This document shows, in pieces, positions 13,186-62,001 of a stretch of DNA of 64,000 nt; the stretch's first letter is position 1; each line of letters begins with the position of its first letter. Below the pieces are notes generated by a model. The model was given only the letters and a program-made list of their open reading frames with translations, had not been told where the DNA came from and searched no databases. Position numbers and translations under genes: made by a program. Origin of the DNA: Candidatus Gottesmanbacteria bacterium (GTDB taxonomy: Bacteria; Patescibacteriota; Microgenomatia; 2-02-FULL-39-11); NCBI GenBank assembly GCA_016186795.1, contig JACPKY010000001.1, forward strand, positions 1,357 to 65,356, read 5' to 3'.

Positions 13186-13396
13186 CTTTACTCCTTTTGG
13201 AGAATCCTATATCCTGTTCCGATCGACCTTCAATCAGCTCATTTCATGCGCACCTCCTTTGTTTCATCGAATGAGAGTTAGAAAAAGAGAAAAAGGAAAT
13301 TTTAATGTACAACTAAATTCCAGCTATTAGGAATGTTATACTTCTAGGTTATAAATTAGACCGATAGAATACTACAAAATACGCGAGGTATCAAAC

Positions 13397-13427
13397 CCCA
13401 CAAAAAATCCGCCCTCAAAAGAGCGGA
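13397..13427. terminator. Hairpin repeat, copy 1 (CCCCACAAAAAATCCGCCCTCAAAAG + GCGGA)
   Basis: A stem TCCGC/GCGGA closes a CCTCAAAAGA loop. The first 26 nt are identical to 14117-14142. Confidence 0.5.
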
Positions 13428-13450: not shown

Positions 13451-13900
13451 CTAATTTAGATTCCTAAAGTCTATTCTAAATTCTTTCTTATATCCTTCAA
13501 ATGTTATTTTTGCTTGCTGAAAAATATCTTTTCGTCCCAAAATACACTTAAATGCATTCACGCCTTCTGCAATATTTATACTTAATCGAAATTCATAATC
13601 ATCAATCTTAGCAACCAAGTTAGGAAAAGTATGATAGACAAAATTTCCCGATGTTGTTAAACCGACATGTCTTGGTAGTTTTTGCCAATTTATATTTAGA
13701 GCATCTGCGATTACTGTTGATATCAACCCTTGTTCTCCACCAGAATCTACCAATGCAAAGGTTGGGAATTCAAAATTTCCATGTATAAAAGTCACTGGTA
13801 CAACAGGAGCAAGAACCCCTGTTCTCTCTAAACCTGGCAATAAACTATATTTTAAAATTAGCATTGGAAAATAAACCGACAAAGTTAGAATAGGTCTCAC
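13451..13900 (-). CDS. Retropepsin-like (clan AA) aspartic protease domain protein
   Basis: The motif FALVDSGGEQGLIS resembles the hydrophobic-hydrophobic-D-S/T-G-A active-site flap of retropepsin-like bacterial proteases. Confidence 0.4.
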   Translation of the reverse strand: MRPILTLSVYFPMLILKYSLLPGLERTGVLAPVVPVTFIHGNFEFPTFALVDSGGEQGLISTVIADALNINWQKLPRHVGLTTSGNFVYHTFPNLVAKIDDYEFRLSINIAEGVNAFKCILGRKDIFQQAKITFEGYKKEFRIDFRNLN

Positions 13901-14116: not shown

Positions 14117-14156
14117 CCCCACAAAAAATCCGCCCTCAAAAGGACGGATTTTTTCT
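14117..14156. terminator. Hairpin repeat, copy 2, a bidirectional intrinsic-terminator-like structure (AAAAATCCG-loop-CGGATTTTTT)
   Basis: A 9-bp stem flanked by an A-tract and a T-tract, lying between the small ORF and the 16S 3' end. Confidence 0.55.
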
Positions 14157-14322
14157 TGCCTGTTAGACGACTTGCCCTGAGCGAAGTCGAAGGGTTAACA
14201 ATCAAAAAGTGGTAGGAAGAAAGTTTGATGTTATTTTTACTAATAAAAATTAAAAAATAACAAAAATATAAAAAATAGAAAGGAGGTGATCCATCCCCAC
14301 CTTCCAGTAGGGATACCTTGTT

Positions 14323-15173
14323 CATGTTGTTCCCATTATTTCTAAGGGCATGGACTATATCTTCATCCCGATTGAATCGGGAGCCAACGTGTAGTCTCTA
14401 CGGGGTTAACAATGTAGAAGTAACGACTGAAATTTATACTTCATGCACGGTAAGATATGCGATCTCATAAGTAAGAAGAGTTTCTTTGCATTTGATTTTG
14501 AAAACCAGAGATAATTTCCTTTGCTATCATGATAAATTGTAGCTTTTAAGCCAAAATTTCTATCAAGACAGTCTTGAAGTATCTGATTTCCTGATAAACC
14601 AAATGCATATGTACTTATACGTAACCACTCTCCTTGTTTCGTTCCATTTCCATCATCCATAAACCAAACAGCCAAACTACGCGCTGATACAAGTAGCTTG
14701 TGTATATCAGATGGAATAATTTTTCTATTCCTGGTATAGAAAAGTCTTTTCCATTCGGATAATTCCGGATGATAAATCGTTCGAAGAATAATCGAATTGT
14801 TATACGGATCAAAAGTAGGACCTTTTAATGTCCATCTCTTCCAGAATCTGTAGTGCCAATCGACGTACTCCGAAAAAAGAACTGTGTGTCGAATCTTAAA
14901 TCTAGCTAACATTCCAGAACGTGATGATTCAATATGTCCATCACCAAGAAGAGTACCTATCAAAATTTCTTTCTGAATATTTGTAAGGTGTAGATTTGCT
15001 CGATACTCTTTAAGATATCTGGTGTTAGTAGCTCCGTGCGTCATTGCAACTTCCCTCGGTATTATCCTCTTAACTCAAGATAGCTTAATACTACTTCTTA
15101 AGTCAATTAGGACTTCACCGATATAGTTAGATTTTTCTAACCAATTACTTGGTTAGGTCGCTCTATCTCTAGG
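14323..15173 (-). mobile_element. Intervening sequence (probable group I intron) in 16S rRNA carrying a homing-endonuclease ORF
   Basis: It splits the conserved AAGUCGU|AACAAGGU segment. The 5' exon ends in U and the insertion ends in G, matching the group I rule. It carries the LAGLIDADG ORF on the same strand. Confidence 0.7.
14406..15044 (-). CDS. LAGLIDADG homing endonuclease (intron-encoded)
   Basis: Two LAGLIDADG-type motifs, LIGTLLGDGHIE and LAVWFMDDGNG, in a 212-aa protein lying wholly inside the 16S insertion. Confidence 0.8.
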   Translation of the reverse strand: MTHGATNTRYLKEYRANLHLTNIQKEILIGTLLGDGHIESSRSGMLARFKIRHTVLFSEYVDWHYRFWKRWTLKGPTFDPYNNSIILRTIYHPELSEWKRLFYTRNRKIIPSDIHKLLVSARSLAVWFMDDGNGTKQGEWLRISTYAFGLSGNQILQDCLDRNFGLKATIYHDSKGNYLWFSKSNAKKLFLLMRSHILPCMKYKFQSLLLHC

Positions 15174-15729
15174 ACGACTTAGTCCCCATCGCCAAGCTCG
15201 GCTTTATCCCGATAAATCGGGACATCGGCCGCCCTTGACTTTGTTGGCTTGACGGGCGGTGTGTGCAAGACCCGAGAACGTATTCACCGCGACCTGCTGA
15301 TTCGCGATTACTACCGATTCCTAGTTCATGCAGTCGAGTTGCAGACTGCAATCCCAACTGAGACGAAATTTCAGAGATTTGCTTGCTGTTGCCAGCTTGC
15401 ACCTCGCTGTTTTTCGCCATTGTAGGATGTGTGTTGCCCACGGCATAAGCGCCGTGCTGACTTGACGTCGTCCCCACCTTCCTCCCCGACAAATGTCGGA
15501 GCAGTCTCGTTTGAAATATATAACAAACGACGAGGGTTGCGCTCGTTACCCCACTTAAGGGAACACCTCACGGTACGAGCTGACGACAGCCATGCAGCAG
15601 CTTTCCTATCATCCTTGCGGATGATCCCGATTTTCATCGGGACTAAACGATAGGATGTCAAACCGTGGTGAGGTCTTTCGCTTCGTCTCGAATTAAACCA
15701 CATGCTCCACCGGTTGTGCGGGTCCCCGC

Positions 15730-15763
<34 letters not shown>

Positions 15764-16588
15764 CCCCAGGCGGGGTGCTTAACGCGTTAGCTTACGTCAC
15801 CCATTCCGCTAAAAGCGCACATTATATATGTACGCGCTTGGCGGAACGGGTAACTAGCACCCATGCGTTTACGGCTAGGACTACGCAGGTCTCTAATCTG
15901 CTTCGCTCCCCTAGCTGTCATGCCTCAGCGTCAGAAGTTGGTTGGTTTCCTGCCTTCGCTCTTGGTGTTCCTTTCGATATCAACGCATTTCACTGCTACA
16001 CCGAAAGTTCCGGAAACCCCGCCAACCCTCTAGTCTACCCATCTCTCACCCATGATCCGGTTAAGCCGAACCATTTAAGGCAAGATGCGGTAAACCGCCT
16101 ACGCGATGCTTTACGCCCAATAAATTCGGATAACGCTTGCGCCCTACGTATTACCGCGACTGCTGGCACGTAGTTAGTAGGCGCTTATTCTCCAGACCTC
16201 GATGGTCTGGCAAAAGAGGTTTACATACCGAAATACTTCATCCCTCACGTGGCGTCGCGCGGTCAGGCTTTCGCCCATTGCCGACTATTCCTGGTTGCTG
16301 CCACCCGTAGGTGTATGGCCCGTATCTCAGTGCCATTGTGGCTGGTCGTGCTCTCACACCAGCTACCCGTCATCGCCTTGGTGGGCTTTTACCCAGCCAA
16401 CTAGCTGATAGGAGTAAGGCTCCTCTCGAAGCGGGCAGTGACGCCCTTTGCTCTTGCGAGAACATGCAGTATTACCCCGTCTTTCGACGAGCTATACTTC
16501 ACTTCGAGGTAGATTCCTTACTATTACTCACCCGTCTGCCGCTGACCCCTTGCGGGGCCCGCTCGACTTGCATGCCTAAGGCACGCCA

Positions 16589-16621
<33 letters not shown>

Positions 16622-16799
16622 AATAAAATCCTACCACAACGTGCTATTCCTAATTGAGGGAAAAAAACCCGCCAACGTAGCGGGATGTTGCTCCTTATTA
16701 CAGTTGATCGTTGCCCTTATTCCTTCTTTTTGTCGTTCCCCTCTATTAAATGAATATCTTGTCTGACTATACTAAAATCCTCCTTGAGTGTCAAGGGTT

Positions 16800-22514: not shown

Positions 22515-23075
22515 TCAACTTGAACTTCTTTTTAGTTGTTCAATAATCTTGTATAACACGATTCCACAGGAAACCATGACATTCAGAGAGGTATTTACTC
22601 CAAACATTGGGAGTTCAACAATTATATCTGCAATATTGAGAACTTCTTTTGATACTCCATACGTCTCATTCCCGATAACAACCGCAACTGGAAATCCTAC
22701 TTTTAATTTTGAAATCGGAATACTATTTTTATGTTGTTCCACCGCTATTACTTTGAGATTTGATCCGCCAGCTGGCGGATGATTTTTGAGCTTGGAAATG
22801 GCATCCATTGTAGTGGAAACATACTCCCACTCTACCCACTTCCACGTATTTATTGAAGCTTTTTTAATCTTTGGATTCGGTGGTATCTCCGTTTCACCAC
22901 AAAGAAAAACTTTCTCAGCTGCCACTGCATCAGCAAGACGAAATATAGCACCGACATTGTACGTATCCAAAACATTATCACAAATGATAAAAATGGGGTT
23001 TCTGTGAATTTTTTTTATTACCTCAGGATCAGGATCTTGTGTTGTTCGTAATTCTGATGCTTTCAATCGTATCAT
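22515..23075 (-). CDS. SpoU/TrmH-family RNA 2'-O-methyltransferase carrying an in-frame palindromic insertion
   Basis: TrmH motifs VVIGNETYGVS and ELPMFGVNTSLNVMVSCGIVLY. The inserted segment is KNHPPAGGS. Confidence 0.8.
   Translation of the reverse strand: MIRLKASELRTTQDPDPEVIKKIHRNPIFIICDNVLDTYNVGAIFRLADAVAAEKVFLCGETEIPPNPKIKKASINTWKWVEWEYVSTTMDAISKLKNHPPAGGSNLKVIAVEQHKNSIPISKLKVGFPVAVVIGNETYGVSKEVLNIADIIVELPMFGVNTSLNVMVSCGIVLYKIIEQLKRSSS
22759..22789. repeat. Palindromic element copy 1 (TTTGATCCGCCAGCTGGCGGATGATTTTTGA), in-frame within the TrmH-family gene
   Basis: Perfect 18-nt palindrome ATCCGCCAGCTGGCGGAT; 29 of 31 nt identical to 30217-30247. Confidence 0.8.
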
Positions 23076-23132
23076 GGTGCGATTATAGCACCACCCTCTT
23101 TACTGTTTACATGAAATTTATGAAGTGGTATC

Positions 23133-25283
23133 ATGACATTGTTACCTATGGCGTCTCCTTTTTCGAAACCTTCACCCTTCCAGTCACCTCTTAGAACTGC
23201 AATCATCATTTTCGGCCTCCTCATTGGTGTTGGAGTCGGAGGGGGAGCAATTGTTACATCACTTAATTCTTCAAATCCCCAAACTTCCCCGTTATCTCAG
23301 TCACCGCTTACACAACTCATACAATCTGGTATCACACCAACCAGACCGGCAAACCCCTACAACGTTCTTTTTGCAAAATCTATGCAAGGGGCAACGGATC
23401 TTATGACAAAAGGGCCGTTTGATAACTCTTCAAAACTTGTTTCATCCTTACCTGACGCGATAAAACATATCAATTTCATTTCTCCATCTGAAATCATTTT
23501 CATCGATGAACTGAATGACAATGAGCATGGGAAGTCCATTAAGAAATATAATAGTGAGGATGGTTCAACGACAACACTTGTTGCCCTTGGACAAAGCACG
23601 TGGGGAATAGATGATGTCGTTTCTTCTCCCGATGGCACATACATCGCCTGGTGGGAAGTACAATTTACGAACCAAAATCAGCTTCTGGGAGGATTTTCCC
23701 GCGTTTTTGTGAAAAAAATTCTCCCTTCTGCTTCTGCCGCGATTCAACTTACCAATGAAGTTGCAACAGAGACTACTCCTCTTCACTATCCTCTCTTTTT
23801 CGACAGGAACAATAGACTCTATCTCGATACGTTTATACCAAATGGCGGAGGATTTTATCTCGGACTTTCGATCGTTGAAAATCCAGGAGCCAATGTTTTC
23901 ACTCCAATTCCAGACATGAAAGACGGGGACTATCTCTCTGATCCAGAACTTTCTCCTGATGGAACGAAAATTCTCTTCACCGCATATGATGGATCAGCTT
24001 CCTTCAAGTACACTTCAATAAGTGGACTTTCCGTCAACCGTACCTCAAATATCAACCCTAATCTCCTTGTGGTGAAAGATCTGACAACTGGTACAAAGCA
24101 GACTCTCCTCGGTTCATCAAATGGAGCACAGTACGTAAACCCGAAATGGTCAAATGATGGAACAATAGTAAGTTTCTTGGGATACCATCTCACTAGCCCC
24201 ACATCATCTCAGTACGACGGTGTATTTACGTTTCGTCTTACGGATGCATCGCCTCAGAAGGTAAATGGCATTACCTCATCACGGGTAAGACTTCTGTCAC
24301 TTACTCATACCGAACTCATTTGGGGAAAACCAACATCTGAGGTTGGAAGTTTAGGCCCAAAGTACGCTCCAATTCTTAGCCAAATCAATACAACAGATAT
24401 CATTTCAAACCAAACAACATCAATTCTTGCTGAACCTCTTATTCAGTATGTCAATATTTCTCCCGGAAACATATCGGGGAAAGAGGTAGCACAAAGTAAT
24501 AATTCAATACAATTTTCCTCCTTTAAACCAAAAATAGTTGCACAAAAAAGACAAGATCAGCAGAATGATCCACAAACTACTCCCAGTGTCACTCCAACTG
24601 GAGGGCCCACCGTAACTCCCGGGCCAACTTCAACTCCCGGACCATCACCTACTCCATGGACCAAACCGAAGTGCCGCGATTACTGTCAAATTCCAGAGCC
24701 AACCCCCCTCCCCCCTTCCTGCGTTGACTTCTCAAAATGTTATGATTCTCCGCTTTACCTCTATCCACAAACAGAAACGAACGTGAAGATACAAGTCTCT
24801 GGCGCAACACTTTTTTCTGACATTCCTGAAATGGAAAACAATTCATGGAACGTCAAAGCATACCCTGATGGAAAAATTAGAAGTCGCGGGGGCGAGTATT
24901 CATCAATTAACTATAGTTACATTGGAGATCCTCAACCCCCACCTCCATATGGCACTGTCGTTGATAAGAAAGATCTAGCAATTACTCTTAAGCGGTTTGC
25001 AGAGAAACTTGGTCTCAATGAGAAGGAGACAAACGATTTTGTTTCGTTTTGGACAAATACTCTTCCCACCACGCCATATTATCTTGTAAGTTTCTACCCA
25101 AAAGAGACTGCGCAAAAAATCATCCAGTATAGCATACGTCCTGAACCAAACTCATTTTTGCAAATTATCATGTACTTTAAACCACTTGAGTACAAAGTGA
25201 AACTTCCTCCTCCAACCTTTCCCAAATTTGAACGCAAAGGGTTTGTTGCCGTTGATTGGAGCGGTGTAGTTGATGATAAATAA
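23133..25283 (+). CDS. Secreted TolB-like (PD40 beta-propeller repeat) protein with PT-linker and conserved C-terminal domain
   Basis: PD40-like repeats (SPDGTYIAWWEV, SPDGTKILFTAYDGS, WSNDGTIVSF). A PT-rich linker precedes a C-terminal domain homologous to that of CDS 18161..19717. Confidence 0.65.
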   Translation: MTLLPMASPFSKPSPFQSPLRTAIIIFGLLIGVGVGGGAIVTSLNSSNPQTSPLSQSPLTQLIQSGITPTRPANPYNVLFAKSMQGATDLMTKGPFDNSSKLVSSLPDAIKHINFISPSEIIFIDELNDNEHGKSIKKYNSEDGSTTTLVALGQSTWGIDDVVSSPDGTYIAWWEVQFTNQNQLLGGFSRVFVKKILPSASAAIQLTNEVATETTPLHYPLFFDRNNRLYLDTFIPNGGGFYLGLSIVENPGANVFTPIPDMKDGDYLSDPELSPDGTKILFTAYDGSASFKYTSISGLSVNRTSNINPNLLVVKDLTTGTKQTLLGSSNGAQYVNPKWSNDGTIVSFLGYHLTSPTSSQYDGVFTFRLTDASPQKVNGITSSRVRLLSLTHTELIWGKPTSEVGSLGPKYAPILSQINTTDIISNQTTSILAEPLIQYVNISPGNISGKEVAQSNNSIQFSSFKPKIVAQKRQDQQNDPQTTPSVTPTGGPTVTPGPTSTPGPSPTPWTKPKCRDYCQIPEPTPLPPSCVDFSKCYDSPLYLYPQTETNVKIQVSGATLFSDIPEMENNSWNVKAYPDGKIRSRGGEYSSINYSYIGDPQPPPPYGTVVDKKDLAITLKRFAEKLGLNEKETNDFVSFWTNTLPTTPYYLVSFYPKETAQKIIQYSIRPEPNSFLQIIMYFKPLEYKVKLPPPTFPKFERKGFVAVDWSGVVDDK

Positions 25284-25763
25284 TGACAGCCACCCAACCG
25301 CTAATCCAAGTAATACTCCTCCAATAACATCTGATGGATAATGTTCACCCAGGTATATTCTTGAAAAAGCAATAAGAAAAGCAATTGTATAGTACAGATA
25401 GGAATATTTCTTATGCTTTTGCGAAAGTATATACGCTCCTGCGAAAGCAAGTGTTGCATGTGTTGAGGGAAATGAATAAGTCTGAAGGAAAGATGCTTCA
25501 GGGCGTAATCTTTGAAAAAGATTTTTTAATAAAAATTCTCCTCCCGTAATACTTCCAAAAAAGGCAACAATTAGTGCATCAAAAATCTTTTTATCCTCAA
25601 TCTCTTCAAACAGAAGTAGTATTCCTGCAATAACTACCCAAATAACTCCCCATGTTCCAACCCCTGATAAAAAGCGGAAGAAAAGTGTAAAGGGCGGGTT
25701 TATGAAATTGCCTTGGATAAAATTTATTATTCCGTAATCAAGTGCGAAGATGAACTCTCCCAT
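25152..25763 (-). CDS. PAP2-family membrane phosphatase (phosphatidic acid / undecaprenyl-PP phosphatase-like)
   Basis: The three PAP2 motifs KNLFQRLRP, PSTHA and SRIYLGEHYPSD are present, and the protein is multi-TM. Confidence 0.75.
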   Translation of the reverse strand: MGEFIFALDYGIINFIQGNFINPPFTLFFRFLSGVGTWGVIWVVIAGILLLFEEIEDKKIFDALIVAFFGSITGGEFLLKNLFQRLRPEASFLQTYSFPSTHATLAFAGAYILSQKHKKYSYLYYTIAFLIAFSRIYLGEHYPSDVIGGVLLGLAVGWLSLFIINYTAPINGNKPFAFKFGKGWRRKFHFVLKWFKVHDNLQK

Positions 25764-25797
25764 TACTTTTATTATAGAAGGTGATAGTAGTTATGTG

Positions 25798-26166
25798 TCA
25801 AACAGTGGGCGTTGCCTTAACCGTTGGAGTTGGAGAATTTGTGGCAGATGTCGTTGGCGCTGCCGTTACTGAAATAGGAGGAGATGTTGGTTTTTTCGTG
25901 GGAACTGCCGTTGGTCGCGCCTTTGGAGCTGCCGAGGGTGTTGATGTCGGCGTTGTTGGCGGAGGTGTTGGAGTGTAGTAAATGACGGTAACTACTGGTT
26001 CTTTGGGAACTGGAGAGATAATTTGTTTACTACCCCGTAGGAAAAAATAGAGTCCTCCTCCTAATAGCGCAATTATTAGAAGGATAATAAGGATAGGAAG
26101 GAAAGATCGTGTTGTTCGTGAACGCACAGGTTGGAAGGTATCACTCATACCTTTATTATATACCAC
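25798..26166 (-). CDS. Membrane-anchored Pro/Thr-rich protein
   Basis: 122-aa ORF with an N-terminal TM helix followed by a TPTPPPTTPTST low-complexity region. Confidence 0.4.
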   Translation of the reverse strand: MVYNKGMSDTFQPVRSRTTRSFLPILIILLIIALLGGGLYFFLRGSKQIISPVPKEPVVTVIYYTPTPPPTTPTSTPSAAPKARPTAVPTKKPTSPPISVTAAPTTSATNSPTPTVKATPTV

Positions 26167-26184
26167 TGGAGTGTAATGCCAAAA

Positions 26185-26649
26185 TTAGCGGTACTCGATA
26201 TCAAGTGCATCAATTTGTTTTTGGGTAAGTCCCTGGGATCGTATCCAAGAAACGGCATCGACCTGAAAGGACTGCGCATTCCCAGTACGTGTTACGATGA
26301 AAGCAAAATGTTCAACTGGTTCGGTTTTGAATGTCCTTGTTATTGAAAATGTTAAACCTGTATAGGGAGTTTTATTGGCAAGATAAATATCTGGCGTATA
26401 TGTTCGCATATAGAGTTCGTCTGTCTTTTCTGCCCCTTGTGGCTGTGTATCAGGCAAAAGTGTTGGCGATGATTTTATCTGTGGAGTATATGAAACAAAT
26501 GGGGGCGGTGTAGGTGTTGCAGGTAAAGTTTCTTTTTCTTTTTTTGAAGACCCAAAAAGTGATGAAACAATAATGATTATAAAAAGTATTACTGCGATAC
26601 CAAAAAGAAAAATAACTTTTCGTATATTCATGATGACTTTTGCAACCAT
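26185..26649 (-). CDS. Membrane-anchored hypothetical protein
   Basis: 154-aa ORF with an N-terminal TM helix. Confidence 0.4.
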   Translation of the reverse strand: MVAKVIMNIRKVIFLFGIAVILFIIIIVSSLFGSSKKEKETLPATPTPPPFVSYTPQIKSSPTLLPDTQPQGAEKTDELYMRTYTPDIYLANKTPYTGLTFSITRTFKTEPVEHFAFIVTRTGNAQSFQVDAVSWIRSQGLTQKQIDALDIEYR

Positions 26650-28454
26650 CCAATAATTTGCGGATATGATACTGGAATAATTCTATCATTTCTTACCTTT
26701 CCCCGTGGTCCCCAATTACCTTCAGCAACTCGGAATGATGTTGTTCCGTAGACTTCTACGACAAATCCTGTATGACCATCAGGGCTTGGTTTAAATCCGG
26801 AAACTTCAGGATCTATGGTCGTATCCCAAACAGCTAAATCTCCAACATTTGGACTAATTACATCTTTTTTAGCAACAAATTTATACCCCGCAAGTTGACC
26901 GCTTGTAAGGTTACGAATATCAACTGCTCGGTCAACTGCCGGAAGTATTTTACCGCTTTCATGAAGAAAAGCAGCGCGGGCAAATCCCACACATTGGATG
27001 TTGTCAAATTCACTTCCCACTCCATCGTGGAATGATTTAAGCTCGGTAAGAACACTATCCGAGTAAGGGGTTGCTACATCAGTATTTAGTCGATCCAAAC
27101 AGGAAATATTGACAACATTCACAATACCATCTGCAATATATGTTTTTCCATCATCATTAGTCACTTGCGCTTTACAATTTTTCTGAATGTCAGAAACAAG
27201 AAGATCAACTGATCCTCCTCCACCACCACCTGTATCACAATCATCCGGATACGTGCCATTGAGCAAACAGAAGTAAACTTTCGGTAGATTGTAGAAAAAC
27301 TGTTCATTTTCAGTACCTTTAAATTGGCACGTTTCATTTGATCCGATATCAACACCAAGAGCAAATTTGCACATAAATTGATCAATTGTCTTCGGGGTCT
27401 GTACATTACCGATAAGTCCAACAAACCGGGAAAGTTGTGCTTCAAATTTCTCCTGTTTTTGCGGGTCATTACAGGTAGTTTTCGGAAGCGAAACAACTCC
27501 TAAATCCCAAATGTCTTTTCCCAACCCGCAAGCATCTGACGCATGGGTCTCTTCAACCCAGATAGCAAGAACAAACAACGGATTCCACATATGGGGTGGA
27601 TCGGAGGAGTCAAACCCGTTTTTATAGGATGCATCAAACACTCTCCTCCATGAGTCTATAAGCGACGTCGGGTAGGTATTTTTGAATGTTGGAACAATCT
27701 GCGATTCCATTCTTCCTAAAACACCAGGAACGAGCTGATCAATTACTGTTGCTTTACTCTCATCTGTCTTATAGTACGGGATACCGACATATGATGTGTC
27801 ACTTGAGGTATCCGGAGGAAGAATTGGTGCTTCGAGAGGACCTCCTCTGATGATATTCCCACGACAAAGTCCTGCCGGAAGTACTGAACACTTTACAACT
27901 TCAAGGCTTCTAGCCATAGATTGATTTTCATCAAATAAACCAAGAACAGACTCGTTGCTAGCATTTGCAACGGTATCTTCCGATTTGATATTAAATGCTT
28001 GATTTTCTCTTACAACTTTCTCCCCGACTCCAAATGGAAAATTCGTATCGGCAAATTGTTGCGCTTCCTCTGATCCAATACCTATGAGTTGTTCAAGATT
28101 TTTTAAGATCTCGGCAAAGAAAGAAGGCAAATCTGTCGTCACGGCTTTTCCTTCAAGAATTGGGTTTTGCACACCCCGATTGATCGTATAACCACCAGCT
28201 GCCCCACCAACGGCTTGACTATCAGATTCTTGATTTTCAGATTGAATCGTCTCGCCTCCACTTGTCGTTGTGTTGGAAGATGCTTGCGGATTTTTCACCT
28301 CATCTCCAGCTTGTCCTGGGAGTCTCGTTTTGTAAATTCTTTCAAGTTCACGGCTTCGAGTACCAAGAATGTCGGAAAAATCAAGAGCAGAAACAGACGG
28401 GGGAAAGACTGCCAAGAGAAGAATCGCTATGCAGAGAAAGATGGGCAGGCGCAT
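26628..28454 (-). CDS. Secreted protein with C-terminal CHAP (Cys/His amidohydrolase-peptidase) domain
   Basis: Signal peptide. The C-terminus carries the CHAP catalytic pattern CVGFAR...GDLAVW...GHTGFVV...EGNW. Confidence 0.7.
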   Translation of the reverse strand: MRLPIFLCIAILLLAVFPPSVSALDFSDILGTRSRELERIYKTRLPGQAGDEVKNPQASSNTTTSGGETIQSENQESDSQAVGGAAGGYTINRGVQNPILEGKAVTTDLPSFFAEILKNLEQLIGIGSEEAQQFADTNFPFGVGEKVVRENQAFNIKSEDTVANASNESVLGLFDENQSMARSLEVVKCSVLPAGLCRGNIIRGGPLEAPILPPDTSSDTSYVGIPYYKTDESKATVIDQLVPGVLGRMESQIVPTFKNTYPTSLIDSWRRVFDASYKNGFDSSDPPHMWNPLFVLAIWVEETHASDACGLGKDIWDLGVVSLPKTTCNDPQKQEKFEAQLSRFVGLIGNVQTPKTIDQFMCKFALGVDIGSNETCQFKGTENEQFFYNLPKVYFCLLNGTYPDDCDTGGGGGGSVDLLVSDIQKNCKAQVTNDDGKTYIADGIVNVVNISCLDRLNTDVATPYSDSVLTELKSFHDGVGSEFDNIQCVGFARAAFLHESGKILPAVDRAVDIRNLTSGQLAGYKFVAKKDVISPNVGDLAVWDTTIDPEVSGFKPSPDGHTGFVVEVYGTTSFRVAEGNWGPRGKVRNDRIIPVSYPQIIGWLQKSS

Positions 28455-28472
28455 GAGTTAAGTATAACAAAT

Positions 28473-30575
28473 TCATTTTATGTCTTCTTTCTTCCATGAA
28501 GCATAGGTACATGTTGGGTAGTTGGAACATCCATAGAATTGTTTGCCTCGACGAGTTCTCTTTAAAACAATCTCTCCTCCACATTTCGGACATGCAATAC
28601 CTACCCTTTCGACAATGTTTTTGGTATATTTGCAACTGGGAAACGTACTGCATGCCAGGAACTTCCCGAATTTCGAGAGTCTAATAACGAGCGGATTTCC
28701 ACACTCTGGACACTTCTCATCTGTCGTACCTAAATCAACTTTTACTCTTGGAGCTTCCTTAAAGACTGTTTCAAGTTTCTTATGAAAAGGCCCGAAGAAT
28801 TGTCCGACAACATAATTCCACTCCTTCGTCCCGTTTGCGATATTATCCAAATCTTCTTCCATTTCTGACGTAAATCCAACATCAAAAATATCAGGGAAGT
28901 TAGTTACCAGAAAATCGGTTACACTCCTGCCAAGGTCTGTCGGATGAAATCTCTTCTCAATTTTCTCTACATACTTACGATCCTGGACCGTTGATATAAT
29001 TGGAGCGTACGTAGATGGCCTCCCTATTCCTTTTTCCTCAAGTGCTTTGATAAGCGATGCTTCATTAAATCGCGGAGGGGGTTGGGTAAATTTCTGTTGC
29101 GGAAGAATTTTTTCATATTGTAAATTCTCCCCAACTGTAAGCGGTGGTAATATTTTTTTATCTTCACCATTTGTTTCACTTTCCCTTACTTCCGTTTCTT
29201 TCCTCTCACCATCTACTTTGTATAATGATAACCAACCGGCAAACGTCATAACCTCTCCAGTTGCCCTCAACAGTGCTTCTTTTGAAGCCTTTCCAATCGC
29301 TTTTATTACAACTGCTGTCTGATCGAAAAGCGCTTCTCTCATTTGACAGGCAACGAATCGCTTCCAGATAAGACCGTAGAGGAGTTCCCCCTCCCGTCCT
29401 ATGGATGCTGGCACCGTCTCAATCTTCCCGATATTTTGTCCACCCAATTCTATTTTTTTCATGTCTGTTGGGTTTAATCGCCAAACGTGAGTTGGTCGAA
29501 TTGACTCGTGTGCCTCTTGAGCAACTTTTGATTTTGTTTTGTACAGTATTTGAGCATCGGGTAAATAGTGCGGGTACATGTTTTTAATAAACTCGCGTAC
29601 AGATGAGATTGCCTCCGCACTTATATTTGTCGAATCGGTTCGGTGATACGTAATAAGTCCTTGCTCGTAGAGAGACTGTGCCGCGTTCATTGTTTTTTTT
29701 GCACTCCAACCAAAACGATTTGCGGCAGTTTGTTGGAGAGTTGAAGTTATAAAGGGAGGAGAGGGAAAACGGCGTAATTCTTTTTTATCAACAGAATCGA
29801 CGGTATATGCTGCAGTTTTCAAAACTTCAATAATTCCATTTGCCTCATCCTGCGTATGAATCTCATATGATTTTCCATTCAGCTGAAAAAAACGGGCGAT
29901 GAAATTTTCTTCTTTTCCCACTTTTTCCAGTTGCACATCAATAACCCAATACTCAACTGGCTTAAATGCTTCAATCTCTCTTTCCCGATCGACAATTAAA
30001 CGAACAGCAACGGATTGGACGCGACCGGCAGAAAGCCAGCGTTTACCCAGTTTATTCCAAAGAAGTGGTGAGAGTTTATATCCAACAAGACGATCTAAGA
30101 CTCGTCTTGCTTGTTGGGCATCAACCAAATGCATATCAATACCACGAGGATTTTGCAATGCGTGATCAATTGCAGATTTTGTTATCTCATGAAATACGAT
30201 TCGTTGAAAGCGTCCATTTGATGAGCCAGCTGGCGGATGATTTTTGACTTCGTCTCTACGAAGCAGAGACGCCACGTGCCACGCAATCGCTTCTCCTTCA
30301 CGATCCGGATCTGTAGCAAGAATTATTTGTTCTGACTTTCCTGCAATATCTTTCAGTTCTTTAATCTTCACTTTCCTATTTGCAATCGGTTGGTACTGAG
30401 GAACAAATTCATATACATCCTTATCTTGAATTTTCTTATCCTGAATATGCACTCCTAATTTCTTAATCGGCAAATCGCGTATATGACCCATGGTTGCCTC
30501 AATTCGATAGCCTTTTCCTAAGAATCGAGACAATGTTTGCGCTTTGGTTGGTGATTCGACGATGATTAAATTCAT
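28473..30575 (-). CDS. topA: DNA topoisomerase I, carrying an in-frame palindromic insertion
   Basis: MNLIIVESPTKAQTL...GHIRDLP Toprim start, the DxDREGE motif (TDPDREGEAIAWHV), and C-terminal C4 zinc ribbons (CPECG...C..C; CPKCG...C..C). The inserted segment is KNHPPAGSS. Confidence 0.9.
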   Translation of the reverse strand: MNLIIVESPTKAQTLSRFLGKGYRIEATMGHIRDLPIKKLGVHIQDKKIQDKDVYEFVPQYQPIANRKVKIKELKDIAGKSEQIILATDPDREGEAIAWHVASLLRRDEVKNHPPAGSSNGRFQRIVFHEITKSAIDHALQNPRGIDMHLVDAQQARRVLDRLVGYKLSPLLWNKLGKRWLSAGRVQSVAVRLIVDREREIEAFKPVEYWVIDVQLEKVGKEENFIARFFQLNGKSYEIHTQDEANGIIEVLKTAAYTVDSVDKKELRRFPSPPFITSTLQQTAANRFGWSAKKTMNAAQSLYEQGLITYHRTDSTNISAEAISSVREFIKNMYPHYLPDAQILYKTKSKVAQEAHESIRPTHVWRLNPTDMKKIELGGQNIGKIETVPASIGREGELLYGLIWKRFVACQMREALFDQTAVVIKAIGKASKEALLRATGEVMTFAGWLSLYKVDGERKETEVRESETNGEDKKILPPLTVGENLQYEKILPQQKFTQPPPRFNEASLIKALEEKGIGRPSTYAPIISTVQDRKYVEKIEKRFHPTDLGRSVTDFLVTNFPDIFDVGFTSEMEEDLDNIANGTKEWNYVVGQFFGPFHKKLETVFKEAPRVKVDLGTTDEKCPECGNPLVIRLSKFGKFLACSTFPSCKYTKNIVERVGIACPKCGGEIVLKRTRRGKQFYGCSNYPTCTYASWKKEDIK
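30217..30247. repeat. Palindromic element copy 2 (TTTGATGAGCCAGCTGGCGGATGATTTTTGA), in-frame within topA
   Basis: A 23-nt block identical to copy 1 plus a shared TTTGAT flank. Confidence 0.8.
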
Positions 30576-30612
30576 TTAATTGATAACAAACCATTTTATA
30601 CTCCCTGTCAAG

Positions 30613-30658
30613 TGGCTCTCATCACATGAGAGCCATCCCGAGCCCGCCAGCTGGCGGG
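30613..30658. promoter_or_regulatory. Two adjacent palindromes in the topA / divergent-gene intergenic region: TGGCTCTCAT-CAC-ATGAGAGCCA and CCCGCCAGCTGGCGGG (element copy 3)
   Basis: Perfect inverted repeats read directly from the sequence. The second has the same CCGCCAGCTGGCGG core as the intragenic copies. Confidence 0.6.
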
Positions 30659-30717
30659 TCGAGGGATGATACAATATTAATTTCTCCCTTGACATTTTTT
30701 TTGCATAAACTATTCTT

Positions 30718-31872
30718 ATGCTATGCAAAAATTTTTGCTTCAAAAGAAAGCAAAAATACATAAATATTTCTACCATGCCTGTCCAGAATATTTCTAACGT
30801 ACTCCATACAAATATTTCAGCGACACCCTACCCGCAAGCACTACTTGCAGCACCTCCATGGAGTAGTTTTTTGAGACACAACGGCTACCAGGAACTTTCC
30901 AAAGAATTGAACCTTCGAATACTTCAGGATCTTGATACGATCGAGGCGCTTTGGGAGGAATTCTCTCCGAACCGTTCAGTGTTTGATACATGGGATGTAC
31001 GGAAATCTTTTTCTGATGCGTATAGGTTTCGTCCAAAAGCAATCACCATTGAAAAAAAACAAGGGAAAAAAAGGGAAACGGTTGGTGTCTTACCCCTTTG
31101 GTTTAATAGCGATGAAAATCCGGTTGGTGAGTCGAAATACTGTGATTGCAAAAAATTTGTCTGGTTCGGAAGTAATTGGCCTGAGGATAATGTTTTCCAT
31201 GTCAGAGACCCAGAACTTATACCTCTCCTTCTTATTGCTTCTCCAAAACCACTCGAACTTGCTTGTATCCGCTATGACCCAGATTATACGTTCCTTCAGG
31301 AATTTCCAGGGTTTTCAGATGAAGAAGAGAAGAAGTATTTTCTTGATCTTTCGTTTGTTTCCTCACTTGATGATTTTTTGACTCATTTGAAAAAGAAGAA
31401 GCGGTACAATCTACGGCGTGATAAGAAAAAAATTCTTTCCCTAAATCCCACAATTACAATCAATACACATTCTCACCTTAATGATCTTTTTTCCCTTAAT
31501 ATGAAGCGATTCAGAGAACTTTTCCCGGGAGATCCCGATGAATACTCTTCGTTTGAAGATGTCAGGCGGCAAAATGTATTTCGTAATCTTATCGCAAATG
31601 CAAGAAGTTATCAGTATCGGATCATTTCAACAGTTATCGAAGGACGCGTGTGTGCCGTTGAATTCGGACTTGTCCATCACAAAACGTACTATGCCTTCAA
31701 TGCTGGTGTTGATATCGGACACTACTCAGGTCTCGGAGTCTTTTCCAATTTGCTTGTTATTGAAGATGCATTAAATCTCGGATGTACAAAAATTGATTTT
31801 CTTGAAGGTGACAATCACTGGAAAGAATCCTGGCATTTAGATTCTGTAAGCCAATATCAGTTTATCAGGTAA
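30718..31872 (+). CDS. Hypothetical protein, possibly GNAT-fold (BioF2/CelD/FemAB-like) acyltransferase
   Basis: 384-aa ORF. The C-terminal half (YYAFNAGVD...DFLEGDNHWKESW) weakly resembles Acetyltransf_6-type proteins. The start may lie at an internal Met. Confidence 0.35.
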   Translation: MLCKNFCFKRKQKYINISTMPVQNISNVLHTNISATPYPQALLAAPPWSSFLRHNGYQELSKELNLRILQDLDTIEALWEEFSPNRSVFDTWDVRKSFSDAYRFRPKAITIEKKQGKKRETVGVLPLWFNSDENPVGESKYCDCKKFVWFGSNWPEDNVFHVRDPELIPLLLIASPKPLELACIRYDPDYTFLQEFPGFSDEEEKKYFLDLSFVSSLDDFLTHLKKKKRYNLRRDKKKILSLNPTITINTHSHLNDLFSLNMKRFRELFPGDPDEYSSFEDVRRQNVFRNLIANARSYQYRIISTVIEGRVCAVEFGLVHHKTYYAFNAGVDIGHYSGLGVFSNLLVIEDALNLGCTKIDFLEGDNHWKESWHLDSVSQYQFIR

Positions 31873-42109: not shown

Positions 42110-42406
42110 ATGAAATATATTCTGCCACTCCTTTTTATTATTTGCATCGGAATTGTTTTACAAATTCATCCGGTAAAAGTCTCTCCTGCAAATGCTCAGC
42201 AACCAACATTTGGTCCCACGTGTGAAGCAGGTACAACTCCTGGGGTAGCTGCAACAACGTGTCCGACAAATACAGAAAAACCCACAGCTGTACCAAAAAT
42301 ACCGGTAACAGGGACAGGATCAACTCTTGTCATGGCGCTTCTCTCAGGTGGAATTTTTTTGGCAATTCTGGGAGTGGGGACGGTTGCTTTTACTGTGTCA
42401 CGGTAA
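42110..42406 (+). CDS. Small (98-aa) surface protein: signal peptide + conserved PTFGPTCxAGxTPG...TCPTNT Cys module + IPVTG sorting-like signal + TM + basic tail
   Basis: The C-terminal module is nearly identical in pattern to that of CDS 16800..17567. Confidence 0.5.
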   Translation: MKYILPLLFIICIGIVLQIHPVKVSPANAQQPTFGPTCEAGTTPGVAATTCPTNTEKPTAVPKIPVTGTGSTLVMALLSGGIFLAILGVGTVAFTVSR

Positions 42407-44084
42407 ATTCTGCCCACGTACATCCATACGTTATATTTCCATCTAACGGATTGAATGTTCCCAACTTCAGTGCATCGGAGGATAATGGATCAAAGGGAGT
42501 CGGAGTTGGCGTATCGGTCGGAAGTGGAGTACTTTGCGTTTTCGTTTGAGACGATCCAAAAATTCCTGAAAAAAGACTTGCGAAAAAGCCAAAAATCCCA
42601 CTTGGCGGCTGATTAACTGTTGACGCTGCCAAAACCTCCGGCATTCTTGGGGAAAATGCCAAGGGGTTACTTGAAGTTCTGTAGCCACAATTTATTTTTT
42701 CCTCTATTCTATATGATCCAGGTCCGGGAATTGTCGTCGACCACGTTGATGCATAGCGCCAAGCGGGAGGATCCGGTATAACAGTTGGACCAACGGCGGT
42801 AACTGTACCCGATTGTGCTGCAACACTTCCATCTCTTTTCAGCGTATACTCCATATTGAGTACCTCTGCCTTATTTATTGCCGGATTGGAAACTTTCCCG
42901 TATCCGGTAATGGCAAGTGGTGCACCTGTTGTAAATCCAGAACTTGCGGAAACATCAATCCCATCACATTCACAAAAGGGAGTAGGAGTAGCCGATGGTT
43001 GGACTGTTGCGGTTGGAGGAGCAAGTGTTGGAGTAGCAGTTGGAGCCGCACAGATACTTCCATTTGCTCCTGTGTAACAGATTGGACACTCTTCATCACA
43101 TTCATCGTCACTTGAACATGGCCCTCCGCATTGTACTGCAGTTGGAGTAGGCGTTGGCGTACCACTTGGTGCTTGACAAATATTTCCTGAATCTCCAGGA
43201 GCACAGATTGAGCAATCCTCGGGACATTCTGTAGAATTTGGGCCAGGTGTCGTACATGGAGCACCACACTGAGGGGGAGGGGTTGTTGTCGGTGTTGCAG
43301 TTGGAACAACATCGGCAATCCACTCGAAATCTAATTTGGTAAATTTGTCGTTATTGGCAATATCAGTAAAGCGCAAATACGCATTCCCTTGATCATCATG
43401 GAGTACAACACACTCCGACGTTTGATCATTTGGATCTGTTTTACAAAGTGGGTTATTGGGATCGTCTCGAAATTCCCAATGTCCTTGAGTAGATACACCA
43501 TCAGGAAGCTCTGATGCTGGTGGTGGACCGACTTTTAGCGTTGCTTTTTGATGGCGACAGCCAAAACAATCAGTCCTTTGGAAAACAAAGTTGATCTTCG
43601 ATGTGTCACTTGAATCGTACGTAAGTCCATCAGAATTCGTTTTACACGTGTAGTCTGGATTTTGTCCTTTATATCGGGAAATTTCAGGACTTGGAATCTT
43701 CGCTTCTTTTTTACAGTTTACTCGGGCTGCTGGATACCGCTTCGGAGTTGGAGTAGGATTGGGAGGGGGCGCCGGAGTAGTTGGGGGGTTCGGTTTACTT
43801 CCATCTGGTAAGAAAGTGTAGGAAAATTTGTCACCACTTTTGACGATTCTGTACCAGTTATCAACAAGTGGACACGCCTTATTTGTATCCGTATCTCGTA
43901 CGATTGTCCACCTCAATTCAACATTTTTCAAAAATTTCGTCAATCCATCGTGCTTGACATACGTATGTCCGGTGATAAAGGTCGATGCCTCAACCTTCCC
44001 TGGCGAAATTGCAGCAAAGGCAACACCAACAAACACAATCAACAAGTATCTACTAATTCGTTTCATATTCTTGGATTTTCTCAT
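42390..44084 (-). CDS. Secreted Cys-rich protein with tandem Cys-rich repeats and PT-linkers
   Basis: Signal peptide. Two tandem copies of the pattern C(G)(A/G)PC...EC(P/D)E(D/E)C(S/P)ICxxGxxGxIC(Q/A)AP, separated by TPTPTPT linkers. Confidence 0.55.
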   Translation of the reverse strand: MRKSKNMKRISRYLLIVFVGVAFAAISPGKVEASTFITGHTYVKHDGLTKFLKNVELRWTIVRDTDTNKACPLVDNWYRIVKSGDKFSYTFLPDGSKPNPPTTPAPPPNPTPTPKRYPAARVNCKKEAKIPSPEISRYKGQNPDYTCKTNSDGLTYDSSDTSKINFVFQRTDCFGCRHQKATLKVGPPPASELPDGVSTQGHWEFRDDPNNPLCKTDPNDQTSECVVLHDDQGNAYLRFTDIANNDKFTKLDFEWIADVVPTATPTTTPPPQCGAPCTTPGPNSTECPEDCSICAPGDSGNICQAPSGTPTPTPTAVQCGGPCSSDDECDEECPICYTGANGSICAAPTATPTLAPPTATVQPSATPTPFCECDGIDVSASSGFTTGAPLAITGYGKVSNPAINKAEVLNMEYTLKRDGSVAAQSGTVTAVGPTVIPDPPAWRYASTWSTTIPGPGSYRIEEKINCGYRTSSNPLAFSPRMPEVLAASTVNQPPSGIFGFFASLFSGIFGSSQTKTQSTPLPTDTPTPTPFDPLSSDALKLGTFNPLDGNITYGCTWAEFTVTQ

Positions 44085-55523: not shown

Positions 55524-55685
55524 AAAGATAAGGCATAATTATAGGATAAGTATACTCCAAGAAGCAAATATCCATCTGATTTGTTCCTACAGCTTGACAA
55601 AGAGGCTGTAATTATCTATTATAGGTTTTAATGAAGAAACTTTTTACACGAATTATCTCTACCCACCTTATTCTAATTCTTTCTT

Positions 55686-55744
55686 AAGGGGAAGGAGATT
55701 ATTGATTGAGTGAAAACCTTCCCCAAAGGGGAAGGTTTTTTTTG
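55686..55744 (+). promoter_or_regulatory. Putative attenuator: GGGGAAGG (55688-55695) can pair with CCTTCCCC (55717-55724) or that CCTTCCCC pairs with a second GGGGAAGG (55728-55735) to form a terminator hairpin followed by T8
   Basis: The sequence AAGGGGAAGG...AACCTTCCCCAAAGGGGAAGGTTTTTTTTTG lies immediately 5' of the 870-aa gene. Confidence 0.45.
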
Positions 55745-55747
55745 TGC

Positions 55748-59095: not shown

Positions 59096-59901
59096 AGAAG
59101 TAATAGAACTCCAACAACTGTTAATACAATTCCAATTCCCATGGCAGCAAATGTTGTTTCAACGGTCCCAGTTCTTGGAAGTTCAGAAAGTGTAGGAGTC
59201 GGTGTTTTTGTCGGTGTTGGGGTTCTGGTCGGTGTAGCAGTTGGAGTAATTGTCGGTGTGACTTGGCCTCCTCCAGGGGGTGTCGGGGTGGGACTCGTAG
59301 ATCCATCTCCACTTCCTACAGTCAAAGTGAGTGGTGAAAGCGGACACTGGATAATATCAGACGAATCCGAAGACCTATTAATATTGGAATCAGCGGTCGA
59401 ACCGGAAGTACAATCAAATGAAAGTTGTGTTGTACCTGCAGAAAGAGCAGTCAAAGAAATGGTTGCAAAAAGAGTATCAGTACTTGTGGATTTTGGACTT
59501 GAAATATCTTTTACATAACCACTCACAAGATATTTGTTGGTTGTACCTTCAACAATTTTCTGTAAATATGATGGGTAAAAACTTCCTGCGACAAATTGCG
59601 TTGTATTAACACTTAATTTGTTTGGATCAAAGAGTATCATCGCATCTGCATTGGTTGTTGATTGTCCTCCCGTATTAATGAGAATATTTACTTTCACCAC
59701 TCCCCCTGCTTCAAGTGTTTGAGATGGAACAAGTTCGAATTTCAGAACTTGCGCAGAAACTGCATTTATCCTTCCCGCAAGAAGGAAAAGGGTGCTTCCT
59801 ATAATAAATACTAGAAACAGTTTCGCCAAGTTCATATTATTGGATACTGACTTTTGCATTTTCGATCGCATCAACGATGTTTTTGGCTGTACCTTTCTCA
59901 A
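59092..59901 (-). CDS. Sortase-anchored scaffoldin-like protein: cohesin-like domain + PT-linker + LPRTG sorting signal
   Basis: Signal peptide. The cohesin-like pattern is GGVVKVNILINTGGQSTTNADAMILFDPNKLSV; then TPTPTPPGG...TPTPTKTPTPT, LPRTG and a hydrophobic tail. Confidence 0.5.
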   Translation of the reverse strand: MRKVQPKTSLMRSKMQKSVSNNMNLAKLFLVFIIGSTLFLLAGRINAVSAQVLKFELVPSQTLEAGGVVKVNILINTGGQSTTNADAMILFDPNKLSVNTTQFVAGSFYPSYLQKIVEGTTNKYLVSGYVKDISSPKSTSTDTLFATISLTALSAGTTQLSFDCTSGSTADSNINRSSDSSDIIQCPLSPLTLTVGSGDGSTSPTPTPPGGGQVTPTITPTATPTRTPTPTKTPTPTLSELPRTGTVETTFAAMGIGIVLTVVGVLLLL

Positions 59902-60436: not shown

Positions 60437-60488
60437 AATTTTTTTATAATTTTTATAATGGTTATAATTTTTATAAAGTTATACGTTC

Positions 60489-61952: not shown

Positions 61953-62001
61953 CCTACTATATTAGCTTAGGCAATCTACTATCAGTTATCAAGGACCCAA
62001 C

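Follow-up and report, generated by a model that had tools for sequence, protein, structure and literature searches.

A 16-bp palindrome shared by the TrmH and topA genes of a Gottesmanbacterium belongs to a dispersed, probably insertional repeat family of Patescibacteria

Introduction

A 64-kb stretch of DNA from a Candidatus Gottesmanbacteria bacterium, referred to here as the window (the whole stretch at its full length of 64,000 nucleotides, nt), raises the question of how two unrelated housekeeping genes can carry, each in frame, nearly the same segment of about 30 nt. The genes encode a TrmH/SpoU-family RNA 2'-O-methyltransferase of 186 amino acids (aa) (minus strand, 22515-23075; PF00588) and the type IA DNA topoisomerase I of 700 aa (topA, minus strand, 28473-30575), and the segment contains a palindrome that recurs once more upstream of topA. 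Proteins of the Candidate Phyla Radiation (CPR, Patescibacteria), to which the host belongs, are known for unexplained extra segments. A first-pass annotation of the window ascribed the identity, at 29 of 31 nt, to a miniature mobile or recombinogenic palindromic element that tolerates in-frame insertion, or to a site-specific insertion mechanism, and noted a further copy between genes. The analysis reported here indicates that the conserved unit is a perfect palindrome of 16 base pairs (bp), TCCGCCAGCTGGCGGA, and that its copies probably form a dispersed insertional repeat family of Patescibacteria, in which each copy replaces about 4 bp of its target, survives in a tolerant loop and reading frame, and decays.

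Results

Three copies of the palindrome were found in the window. Read directly and recovered by a repeat search (family D15), the segments in the TrmH gene (22758-22789; plus strand ATTTGATCCGCCAGCTGGCGGATGATTTTTGA) and in topA (30216-30247; plus strand ATTTGATGAGCCAGCTGGCGGATGATTTTTGA) are identical at 30 of 32 positions, which upholds the near-identity first described and makes the shared segment one base longer than the 31-mer. The TrmH segment consists of an intact 16-bp palindrome (TCCGCCAGCTGGCGGA, 22764-22779), read H-PPAGG-S on the minus strand, with flanks of a heptamer type, and forms a perfect palindrome of 18 bp when taken as 22763-22780. The topA copy (TGAGCCAGCTGGCGGA, 30222-30237; read H-PPAGS-S) has two adjacent substitutions that leave a palindrome of 10 bp only (GCCAGCTGGC), so that the palindrome ascribed to all copies is perfect in TrmH but largely lost in topA. 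Both copies are in frame on the coding (minus) strand, as annotated, reading KLKNHPPAGGSNLK in TrmH and EVKNHPPAGSSNGRF in TopA, the latter in a loop between ..EAIAWH and RIVFHEIT. The third copy (CCCGCCAGCTGGCGGG, 30643-30658), detected by reading the sequence and by a hairpin scan, lies upstream of topA, with the -35-like box of topA on one side and that of a divergent acetyltransferase gene (30718-31872) on the other, and caps an imperfect hairpin of greater length (30636-30666). Beside it stands, again as annotated, an unrelated perfect palindrome, TGGCTCTCAT-CAC-ATGAGAGCCA (30613-30635), which is single-copy in all the DNA compared. The three copies fall within 8 kb, and the 16-mer has a guanine-plus-cytosine (GC) content of 75% in a window of ~41% GC. 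A search for the 12-mer GCCAGCTGGCGG with at most one mismatch gave five strand-hits at three loci in the window, against 0.13 expected, and none of 100 shuffled sequences reached five, which bears out the claim that the identity exceeds chance. Furthermore, two of the six perfect GC-rich hairpins with a stem of at least 7 bp in the 64 kb are the palindromes at these sites. Both the 32-nt shared segment and the third core copy upstream of topA are confirmed.

The conserved unit is the 16-bp perfect palindrome, not the 31-mer. In 1.07 Mb of Microgenomates DNA, the sample used for counting palindromes and tandem arrays, CGCCAGCTGGCG was the commonest perfect 12-mer palindrome (nine copies from seven sources) though it is 83% GC, and 19 hairpins with a TCCGCC stem were found in 17 sources, 17 of the 19 having a 4-nt loop. 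Copies follow the pattern TCCGCC-N4-GGCGGA, with conserved stems and a variable central 4 nt, at a density of ~1 per 55-80 kb. When metagenome contigs were scanned by exact match to the 16-mer, at least 120 loci were recovered. Among the matches listed, 99 of 124 copies lay in contigs below 50% GC, which is the reverse of the chance prediction for a word of 75% GC. The same scan of viral contigs, used as a control, placed 16 of 56 copies below 50% GC and 40 of 56 at or above it, the latter mostly reading ..RQLA(E/D).. within ordinary coding sequence; the GC split of the listed metagenome matches differed from the viral one with a Fisher p of 8.6e-11. Long open frames held 41 of the 99 listed copies on low-GC contigs, and their reading frames were unevenly used (PPAGG 23, RQLA 10 and SASWR 8; chi-square p 0.008). 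Ten hosts of the PPAGG reading were assigned by Pfam among the matches listed, namely TopA twice (at two further loops), SecA, RecG, TsaD, Trp/TyrRS, CysRS, PheRS-alpha, MurB and a MerR-like protein, and the TopA of a Levybacteria genome (L023) holds the 16-mer at yet another loop, with four residues added. The 16-mer family is probably typical of Microgenomates/Patescibacteria genomes, and the presence of the same 16-mer in many genes and genomes supports the proposal of a miniature palindromic element that tolerates in-frame insertion and also stands between genes. A search of the literature for the sequence, the peptide or the phenomenon in CPR returned nothing relevant.

Outside the 16 bp the copies have little in common. 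Across 96 of the listed copies, no flank consensus was observed except a weak preference for A at -1 and T at +1; flanking direct repeats of at least 8 nt accompanied 6% of these 96 copies compared with 1.3% in controls, and copies on one contig lacked common flanks. A larger transposon or cassette of which two palindromes would be the footprint was ruled out, since copies 1.2-1.9 kb apart in L166 and L172 enclose ordinary genes.

Some copies lie within ~100 nt of contig ends (L113, L159, L174, L093, L104, L150, L203 and L180), and perfect palindromes may interrupt assemblies, making assembly-based copy counts underestimates. Seven of 120 listed metagenome copies stand beside tRNA genes or within broken partial tRNA copies (L104, L110, L133 at 3612, L135 at 797, L138 at 279, L169 at 1081 and L201 at 807). 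L110 carries a truncated 5' half of a tRNA, then the palindrome and then a full copy of that tRNA; in L169 a pseudo-tRNA-Asn contains two hairpins. Many tRNAs have a D-loop motif, CAGCTGG, that equals the central part of the palindrome. A tRNA variable arm or intron as the source was ruled out, ARAGORN and Rfam calling no tRNA across the palindromes.

The extra residues in both host proteins are lineage-specific, as had been supposed. The TrmH protein is 100% identical to the NCBI Candidatus Gottesmanbacteria entry P0121, TopA is in the database with a start position that differs from that of the open reading frame (ORF) in the window, and the best matches of both proteins all belong to Gottesmanbacteria, Microgenomates or Patescibacteria. 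Among 120 TopA orthologues, PPAG was found in the source organism only, and the loop between EAIAWH and RIVFHEIT ranges from ~8 to ~50 residues. In a set of 120 TrmH orthologues, a related insert was found in three more proteins (KDHPSAGGSK, KNPPAGGQMK and KINPPAGGEK), whose DNA contains the same palindrome in other flanks. The four TrmH carriers, out of about 200 orthologues compared altogether, are not mutual nearest relatives, and their nearest neighbours lack the insert, as in the pair of P0126, a carrier, and P0166, a neighbour without it that is 92% identical in aa sequence; an ancestral TrmH motif is thereby ruled out. Aligned with solved structures, TrmH shows a 6-residue gap at 'hppagg' (1zjr and 7edc) and TopA a gap of 9-11 residues at the insert (6ozw and 1mw8). 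The net gain is ~4 codons rather than the whole of KNHPPAGGS, as described below. The locus of the source organism was assembled identically in four independent sequencing runs, as judged from the loop sequences. Sequencing runs in which the organism is present include SRR12113424, SRR12113430, SRR12113383 and SRR12113384.

The manner of insertion was read from three pairs of filled and empty sites with 81-93% nt identity. In TsaD, relatives that are 85-89% identical read LVK(K/N)Y-(D/N)GEV, and the filled host reads LVKNPPAGGAGEV; at the DNA level the empty site AAGAA-GTAT-GATGGAGAG corresponds to AAGAA-TCCGCCAGCTGGCGGA-GCTGGAGAG, the 16-mer standing in place of GTAT. In TrmH, the empty site of L211, CTCA-AATA-TCAAAA, corresponds to ATCA-TCCGTCAGCTGGCGGA-TCAAAA in the filled L005, and the empty L210 and filled L006, which share 93% nt identity, differ by a net 12 nt at the same place. 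The comparisons indicated that 16 bp are gained for 4 bp lost, a net addition of 12 nt (four codons), exactly in two of the three pairs and approximately in L006/L210. No target-site duplication was present in any of the three pairs, and the TTTGAT flank, once suggested as a possible duplication of this kind, consists of heptamer units. The TsaD site has no repeat tract. The same codon holds a decayed copy in a distant second TsaD (62% identity), and all closer relatives are without a copy, which points either to a preferred site or to a scarcity of tolerant ones.

The origin of the flanks shared by TrmH and topA was examined in 80 related loci taken from species-representative genomes of GTDB, the best TrmH match being 70%. 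The TrmH loop in most of these loci is a short tandem array of 7-nt DNA units that varies by species (CTCAAAT, GTCAAAC, GTCAAAA or ATCAAAT, each in four copies), and several TopA loops are likewise built of heptamers, namely (AATCAAA)4, (AGTCAAA)4 and (AATGCAA)4. In the 1.07-Mb sample, 26 perfect arrays of period 7 with at least three copies were counted, compared with 0-3 for periods 5, 6, 8 and 9 and none in shuffled sequences, and 22 of the 26 lie inside long open frames. On the coding strand, the palindrome is embedded in the window as CTCAAAA-ATCA, 16-mer, TCAAAT-CTCAAA in TrmH and as GTCAAAA-ATCA, 16-mer, TCAAAT-GG in topA, and the identity outside the palindrome extends over 9 nt on one side and 7 nt on the other and ends there. 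Because heptamer arrays form both loops in relatives, these 9 and 7 nt represent tract sequence and not the element. On the evidence of sequence comparison, the shared flanks, including the TTTGAT and ATGATTTTTGA that had been counted into the 31-mer, are remnants of the (N)TCAAA(W) heptamer repeats that build both protein loops in relatives. The whole 31- or 32-mer as the element was ruled out, other copies having only the 16-mer in common.

The heptamer unit differs between species at the same loop in both TrmH and TopA, which points to turnover or concerted evolution of a repeat with a period not divisible by three. Arrays mostly have ~4 copies and span 27-34 nt (for example L018 4308-4334, L043 10281-10310 and 6433-6465, and L042 7312-7343), and remnants stand in the TrmH gene of the window at 22752-22763 and 22780-22790. 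Heptamer repeats of cyanobacteria and other bacteria resemble the Microgenomates arrays (PMC4692102).

Individual copies differ in their state of preservation. The TrmH copy is predicted to fold into a 7-bp stem with a tetraloop, with free energies of -7.2 kcal/mol for DNA and -11.9 kcal/mol for RNA (z ~-4.4). Hairpin potential in the topA copy is no better than chance (z 0.17 for DNA and -0.81 for RNA), and the intergenic copy folds jointly with the neighbouring palindrome at -20.1 kcal/mol (z -4.6). Further decayed copies were found in the TrmH gene of L005 and the TsaD gene of L213. Since copies decay, they are not kept individually by selection, and their identity across distant genomes despite decay indicates that new copies are still being produced. 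In L208, the closest relative genome compared (TopA 72% and TrmH 75% identical to the source in aa sequence), the TopA loop holds another hairpin, TCCCGATTCAATCGGGA, between AGCTCAAAG repeats, and the TrmH loop holds yet another, GGGGACCCCTTGCA-GAAT-TGCAAGGGGTCCCC. Upstream of topA, L208 retains the -35-like boxes, but between them lies another spacer, with an AT-rich palindrome, so the intergenic copy is lineage-specific too; it could still have a regulatory role.

Other GC-rich hairpins occupy the TrmH loop in about a dozen of the 80 species. CCTGCCTGCCGGCAGGCAGG (read DLPAGRQG) was found at several sites, among them the TopA of two species, where it occupies the loop taken by PPAGG in a third, and a 21-mer, CCCGCCCGCCGGCGAGGCAGG (ARPPARQ / RPASPAGG), occurs in two different TopA loops of two species. 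TCCCGAT-N3-5-ATCGGGA has 14 copies in the DNA compared, one of them in the TopA loop of L208 and two in the window (14366-14382 and 15625-15642), inside the 16S rRNA gene and its intron. Sites of such sister hairpins include L015 at 1805, L085 at 7732 and 19799, L070 at 17504, L033 at 18108, L024 at 11964, and the topA genes of L056 and L082.

Candidate agents were sought among the 52 ORFs of the window, and no gene for a transposase, integrase, Y1 transposase or repetitive extragenic palindromic (REP)-associated tyrosine transposase (RAYT; PF01797-type), restriction-modification system, ParB or DnaA was found among them, nor any ParB-family or obvious regulator gene beside the sites. The suggested link to a PvuII-type restriction-modification system or a transposase thus finds no support within the 64-kb window. 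A canonical parS was ruled out in the window, where no site has fewer than three mismatches, and no Rfam family was matched at the palindrome sites, the Rfam matches in the window being the 16S rRNA and two tRNAs only. A dprA gene is present in the window.

The window has several further features. Its 16S rRNA gene (~14281-16627, minus strand; Rfam hit 15107-16627) is interrupted near the 3' end, after ..GGGGACTAAGTCG (~15175), by an insertion of ~850 nt that encodes a LAGLIDADG_2 homing endonuclease (ORF 14406-15044), and the last exon (AACAAGGTATCC...GGATCACCTCCTTT) resumes at 14325-14281. An interrupted 16S gene is a known trait of CPR bacteria. The window contains no 23S rRNA gene. Two copies of a 32-nt sequence that resembles a terminator, CCCCACAAAAAATCCGCCCTCAAAAG(A/G)(G/A)CGGA, stand at 13396-13427 and 14117-14148 (94% identical, 721 nt apart) and bracket an ORF without a Pfam match (13451-13900) just downstream of the 16S gene. 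Degenerate periodic repeats of 6, 12 and 18 nt of the GGAGTTGGAGT type (families D1-D4) are dense at 42400-43800 and 59100-63600, in minus-strand ORFs at 42390-44084, 60489-61952 (weak dockerin match) and 62002-63975 that probably encode repetitive secreted or surface proteins. The cumulative GC skew declines to ~54-56 kb and then flattens or rises (~54000-58000), a turn that could mark a replication origin or terminus; no dnaA, dnaN or parB was found near it or elsewhere in the window.

Discussion

We consider a dispersed insertional palindromic repeat family to be the probable explanation of the locus. A sequence-specific process, still at work throughout the lineage, would generate the new copies, because a neutral, decaying 16-mer could not otherwise remain identical in distant genomes. 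The favoured conjecture is that the DNA is broken with ends offset by 4 nt, that these overhangs are removed and that the self-complementary 16-mer is then taken up at the break; an equivalent replacement of a short patch is the alternative. Selection would then retain only copies in tolerant loops and reading frames. Both loops of the window may have offered one common heptamer target, ..AAAAATCA|NNNN|TCAAAT.., and the 32-nt identity of TrmH and topA may equally reflect the same target hit twice or one copy moved by short-patch conversion, with the heptamer repeats as homology. As a tentative and rather doubtful extension, an enzyme system still active throughout Patescibacteria may open AT-rich DNA by cuts offset by 4 nt and insert there the 16-mer together with sister hairpins such as CCTGCCTGCCGGCAGGCAGG and TCCCGAT-N3-ATCGGGA.

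Several points weigh against an insertional family. The copy number is low, at ~1 per 55-80 kb in the sampled DNA, and the taxonomy of most metagenome contigs is judged from their GC content and a few hosts only. The exchange of 16 bp for 4 bp is drawn from three pairs of 81-93% nt identity, of which two lie in repetitive tracts where the alignment is ambiguous and one, L006/L210, requires two extra single-base changes. Recurrence in the same loops could reflect survival where few sites tolerate inserts rather than targeting. No enzyme or template was identified, the 64-kb window being a small part of the genome.

The alternative that survives best dispenses with dedicated mobility and is possible, if doubtful: copies would spread by ectopic short-patch recombination, gene conversion or uptake of short fragments at microhomology, with heptamer tracts as arms, and the topA copy would be a conversion tract from the TrmH loop, or the reverse. 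Such a process would account for the 9 and 7 nt of flank at which the TrmH/topA identity ends, for the heptamer arrays of the same type in both loops of relatives and for an insertion that resembles short-patch replacement without duplication, and dprA shows that machinery for processing imported DNA exists in the window. Most other copies, however, share the 16-mer alone: no conserved flanks were found in the 96 listed copies, copies within one contig have no shared flanks, and the TsaD site is without a repeat tract. Moreover, conversion requires a donor, and the sharp 16-bp boundaries and the identity across lineages are left unaccounted for.

An element of the REP or REP doublet (REPIN) kind is improbable; in this reading a Y1 (HUH) transposase, of the RAYT or IS200/IS605 type and with its gene located outside the window, would move the element as a hairpin of single-stranded DNA. 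Such an element would fit a short GC-rich hairpin repeat without target duplication, the stable hairpin of an intact copy and the several hairpin families found side by side, but the 16-mer is perfectly symmetric and lacks a conserved asymmetric head such as GTAG, its copies are often intragenic and few in number, no PF01797-type gene occurs in the window, and insertion of the IS200/IS605 type removes no target bases. Quite improbable, too, is the reading that the palindrome recurs because of its function, as a site kept by selection for the binding of a dimeric protein to DNA (an operator, a site like parS or the Noc-binding site (NBS), or an uptake signal). The perfect 16-bp symmetry, in which the half-sites are conserved and the central 4 bp vary, the copy between divergent promoter-like boxes upstream of topA and the clustering of three copies within 8 kb speak for such a site, and the lack of a canonical parS in the window was also counted in its favour. 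Its positions, however, differ between orthologues and close relatives, genic copies decay, known uptake sequences are far denser, insertion in protein loops and not substitution gives rise to the sites, and several unrelated hairpin families occupy the same loops. Both of these alternatives are less consistent with the symmetry, intragenic location, non-conserved positions and decay of the copies. Essentially excluded are a peptide motif of ancestral origin, convergence by chance and an artefact of sequencing or assembly: some copies do stand at contig ends, where palindromes can trouble assembly, but the identity extends to synonymous positions between unrelated genes, close orthologues lack the motif, mutated and decayed copies exist, in-frame copies lie in the interior of long contigs from many projects, and four independent sequencing runs agree on the locus.

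The insertional family traces at least part of the extra segments in CPR proteins to a concrete, countable process at the DNA level, in which a small set of short GC-rich palindromes enters, time after time, the same tolerant loops of TopA, SecA, RecG, TsaD, MurB, tRNA synthetases and TrmH. Because a 16-bp unit with sharp boundaries, no duplication and a 4-bp loss fits no standard scheme of transposition, a novel insertion or repair pathway is indicated, in bacteria not yet available in pure culture. For marker genes, such inserts are a possible source of error in alignment, domain calling and phylogeny, and filled/empty polymorphisms could act as strain markers. If an active cut-and-paste system did exist, its units would be the smallest mobile DNA units known, providing a steady supply of 4-7-residue loop insertions in essential proteins and of insertions in rRNA and tRNA regions, possibly linked to the heptamer-repeat tracts of the same loops.

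Comparison with known systems

Several known classes of short repeat differ from the 16-mer in basic respects. Miniature inverted-repeat transposable elements (MITEs) and other transposons are recognized by a flanking target duplication of fixed length, which the 16-mer lacks. HIP1 (GCGATCGC) of cyanobacteria, the DNA uptake sequence (DUS) of Neisseria and the uptake signal sequence (USS) of Pasteurellaceae are likewise short, lineage-conserved sequences that lie in genes in preferred frames, but they occur at ~1 per kb and arise by substitution, whereas the 16-mer occurs at ~1 per 55-80 kb and arises by insertion. Unlike parS sites or operators, the 16-mer stands at positions where it is absent in the closest relative and in most orthologues. 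The REP/REPIN-RAYT systems of enterobacteria and Pseudomonas share with it short GC-rich hairpins, the lack of target duplication and multiple families per genome; REPs, however, are extragenic, imperfect and present in hundreds of copies with an asymmetric conserved head, none of which holds for the 16-mer.

The closest analogues are Rickettsia palindromic elements (RPEs) and mitochondrial GC clusters. RPEs, reportedly described by Ogata and colleagues (Ogata et al., in 2000), are said to be palindromic repeats of ~100-150 bp that stand in frame in unrelated essential protein genes and also in RNA genes, add 30-50 residues at surface-exposed, tolerant positions and form several families. The 16-mer resembles them as a palindromic repeat at many non-homologous sites (at least 120 places, three of them in the window), in frame at tolerant positions of conserved genes whose orthologues without the insert exist, with several families and with a mobilising agent not known for either. 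It differs in its unit of 16 bp, its gain of four codons and its replacement of 4 bp of target, in its host, which is a CPR bacterium (Gottesmanbacteria) and not a member of the Rickettsiales, and in having no sequence relation to RPE-1 to RPE-8; since neither size nor family agrees, the 16-mer works like an RPE but is no member of the class.

Organellar GC clusters, such as those of yeast mitochondria, including the one in var1, are also short GC-rich palindromes in an AT-richer genome, sometimes in frame, and their spread is thought to be due to recombination or repair and not to a transposase of their own. Organelle elements are usually 30-50 bp or longer, whereas the 16-mer is perfect and resides in the genome of a free-living or episymbiotic bacterium; the yeast clusters have AG/TAG flanking repeats, whereas the 16-mer is without a constant flanking repeat. 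Further analogues are the hairpin repeats of Volvox, sponge and placozoan organelles (e.g., PMC2670323 and PMC7813641) and the coding palindromes of Nematomorpha (PMC6649704). By analogy with RPEs and GC clusters, the 16-mer seems to behave like a selfish or neutral palindrome that is tolerated in frame in essential genes, and it stands out by its minimal size, its sharp boundaries, the signature of 16 bp in for 4 bp out, its spread over a branch of the candidate superphylum and the heptamer tracts that co-occur with it.

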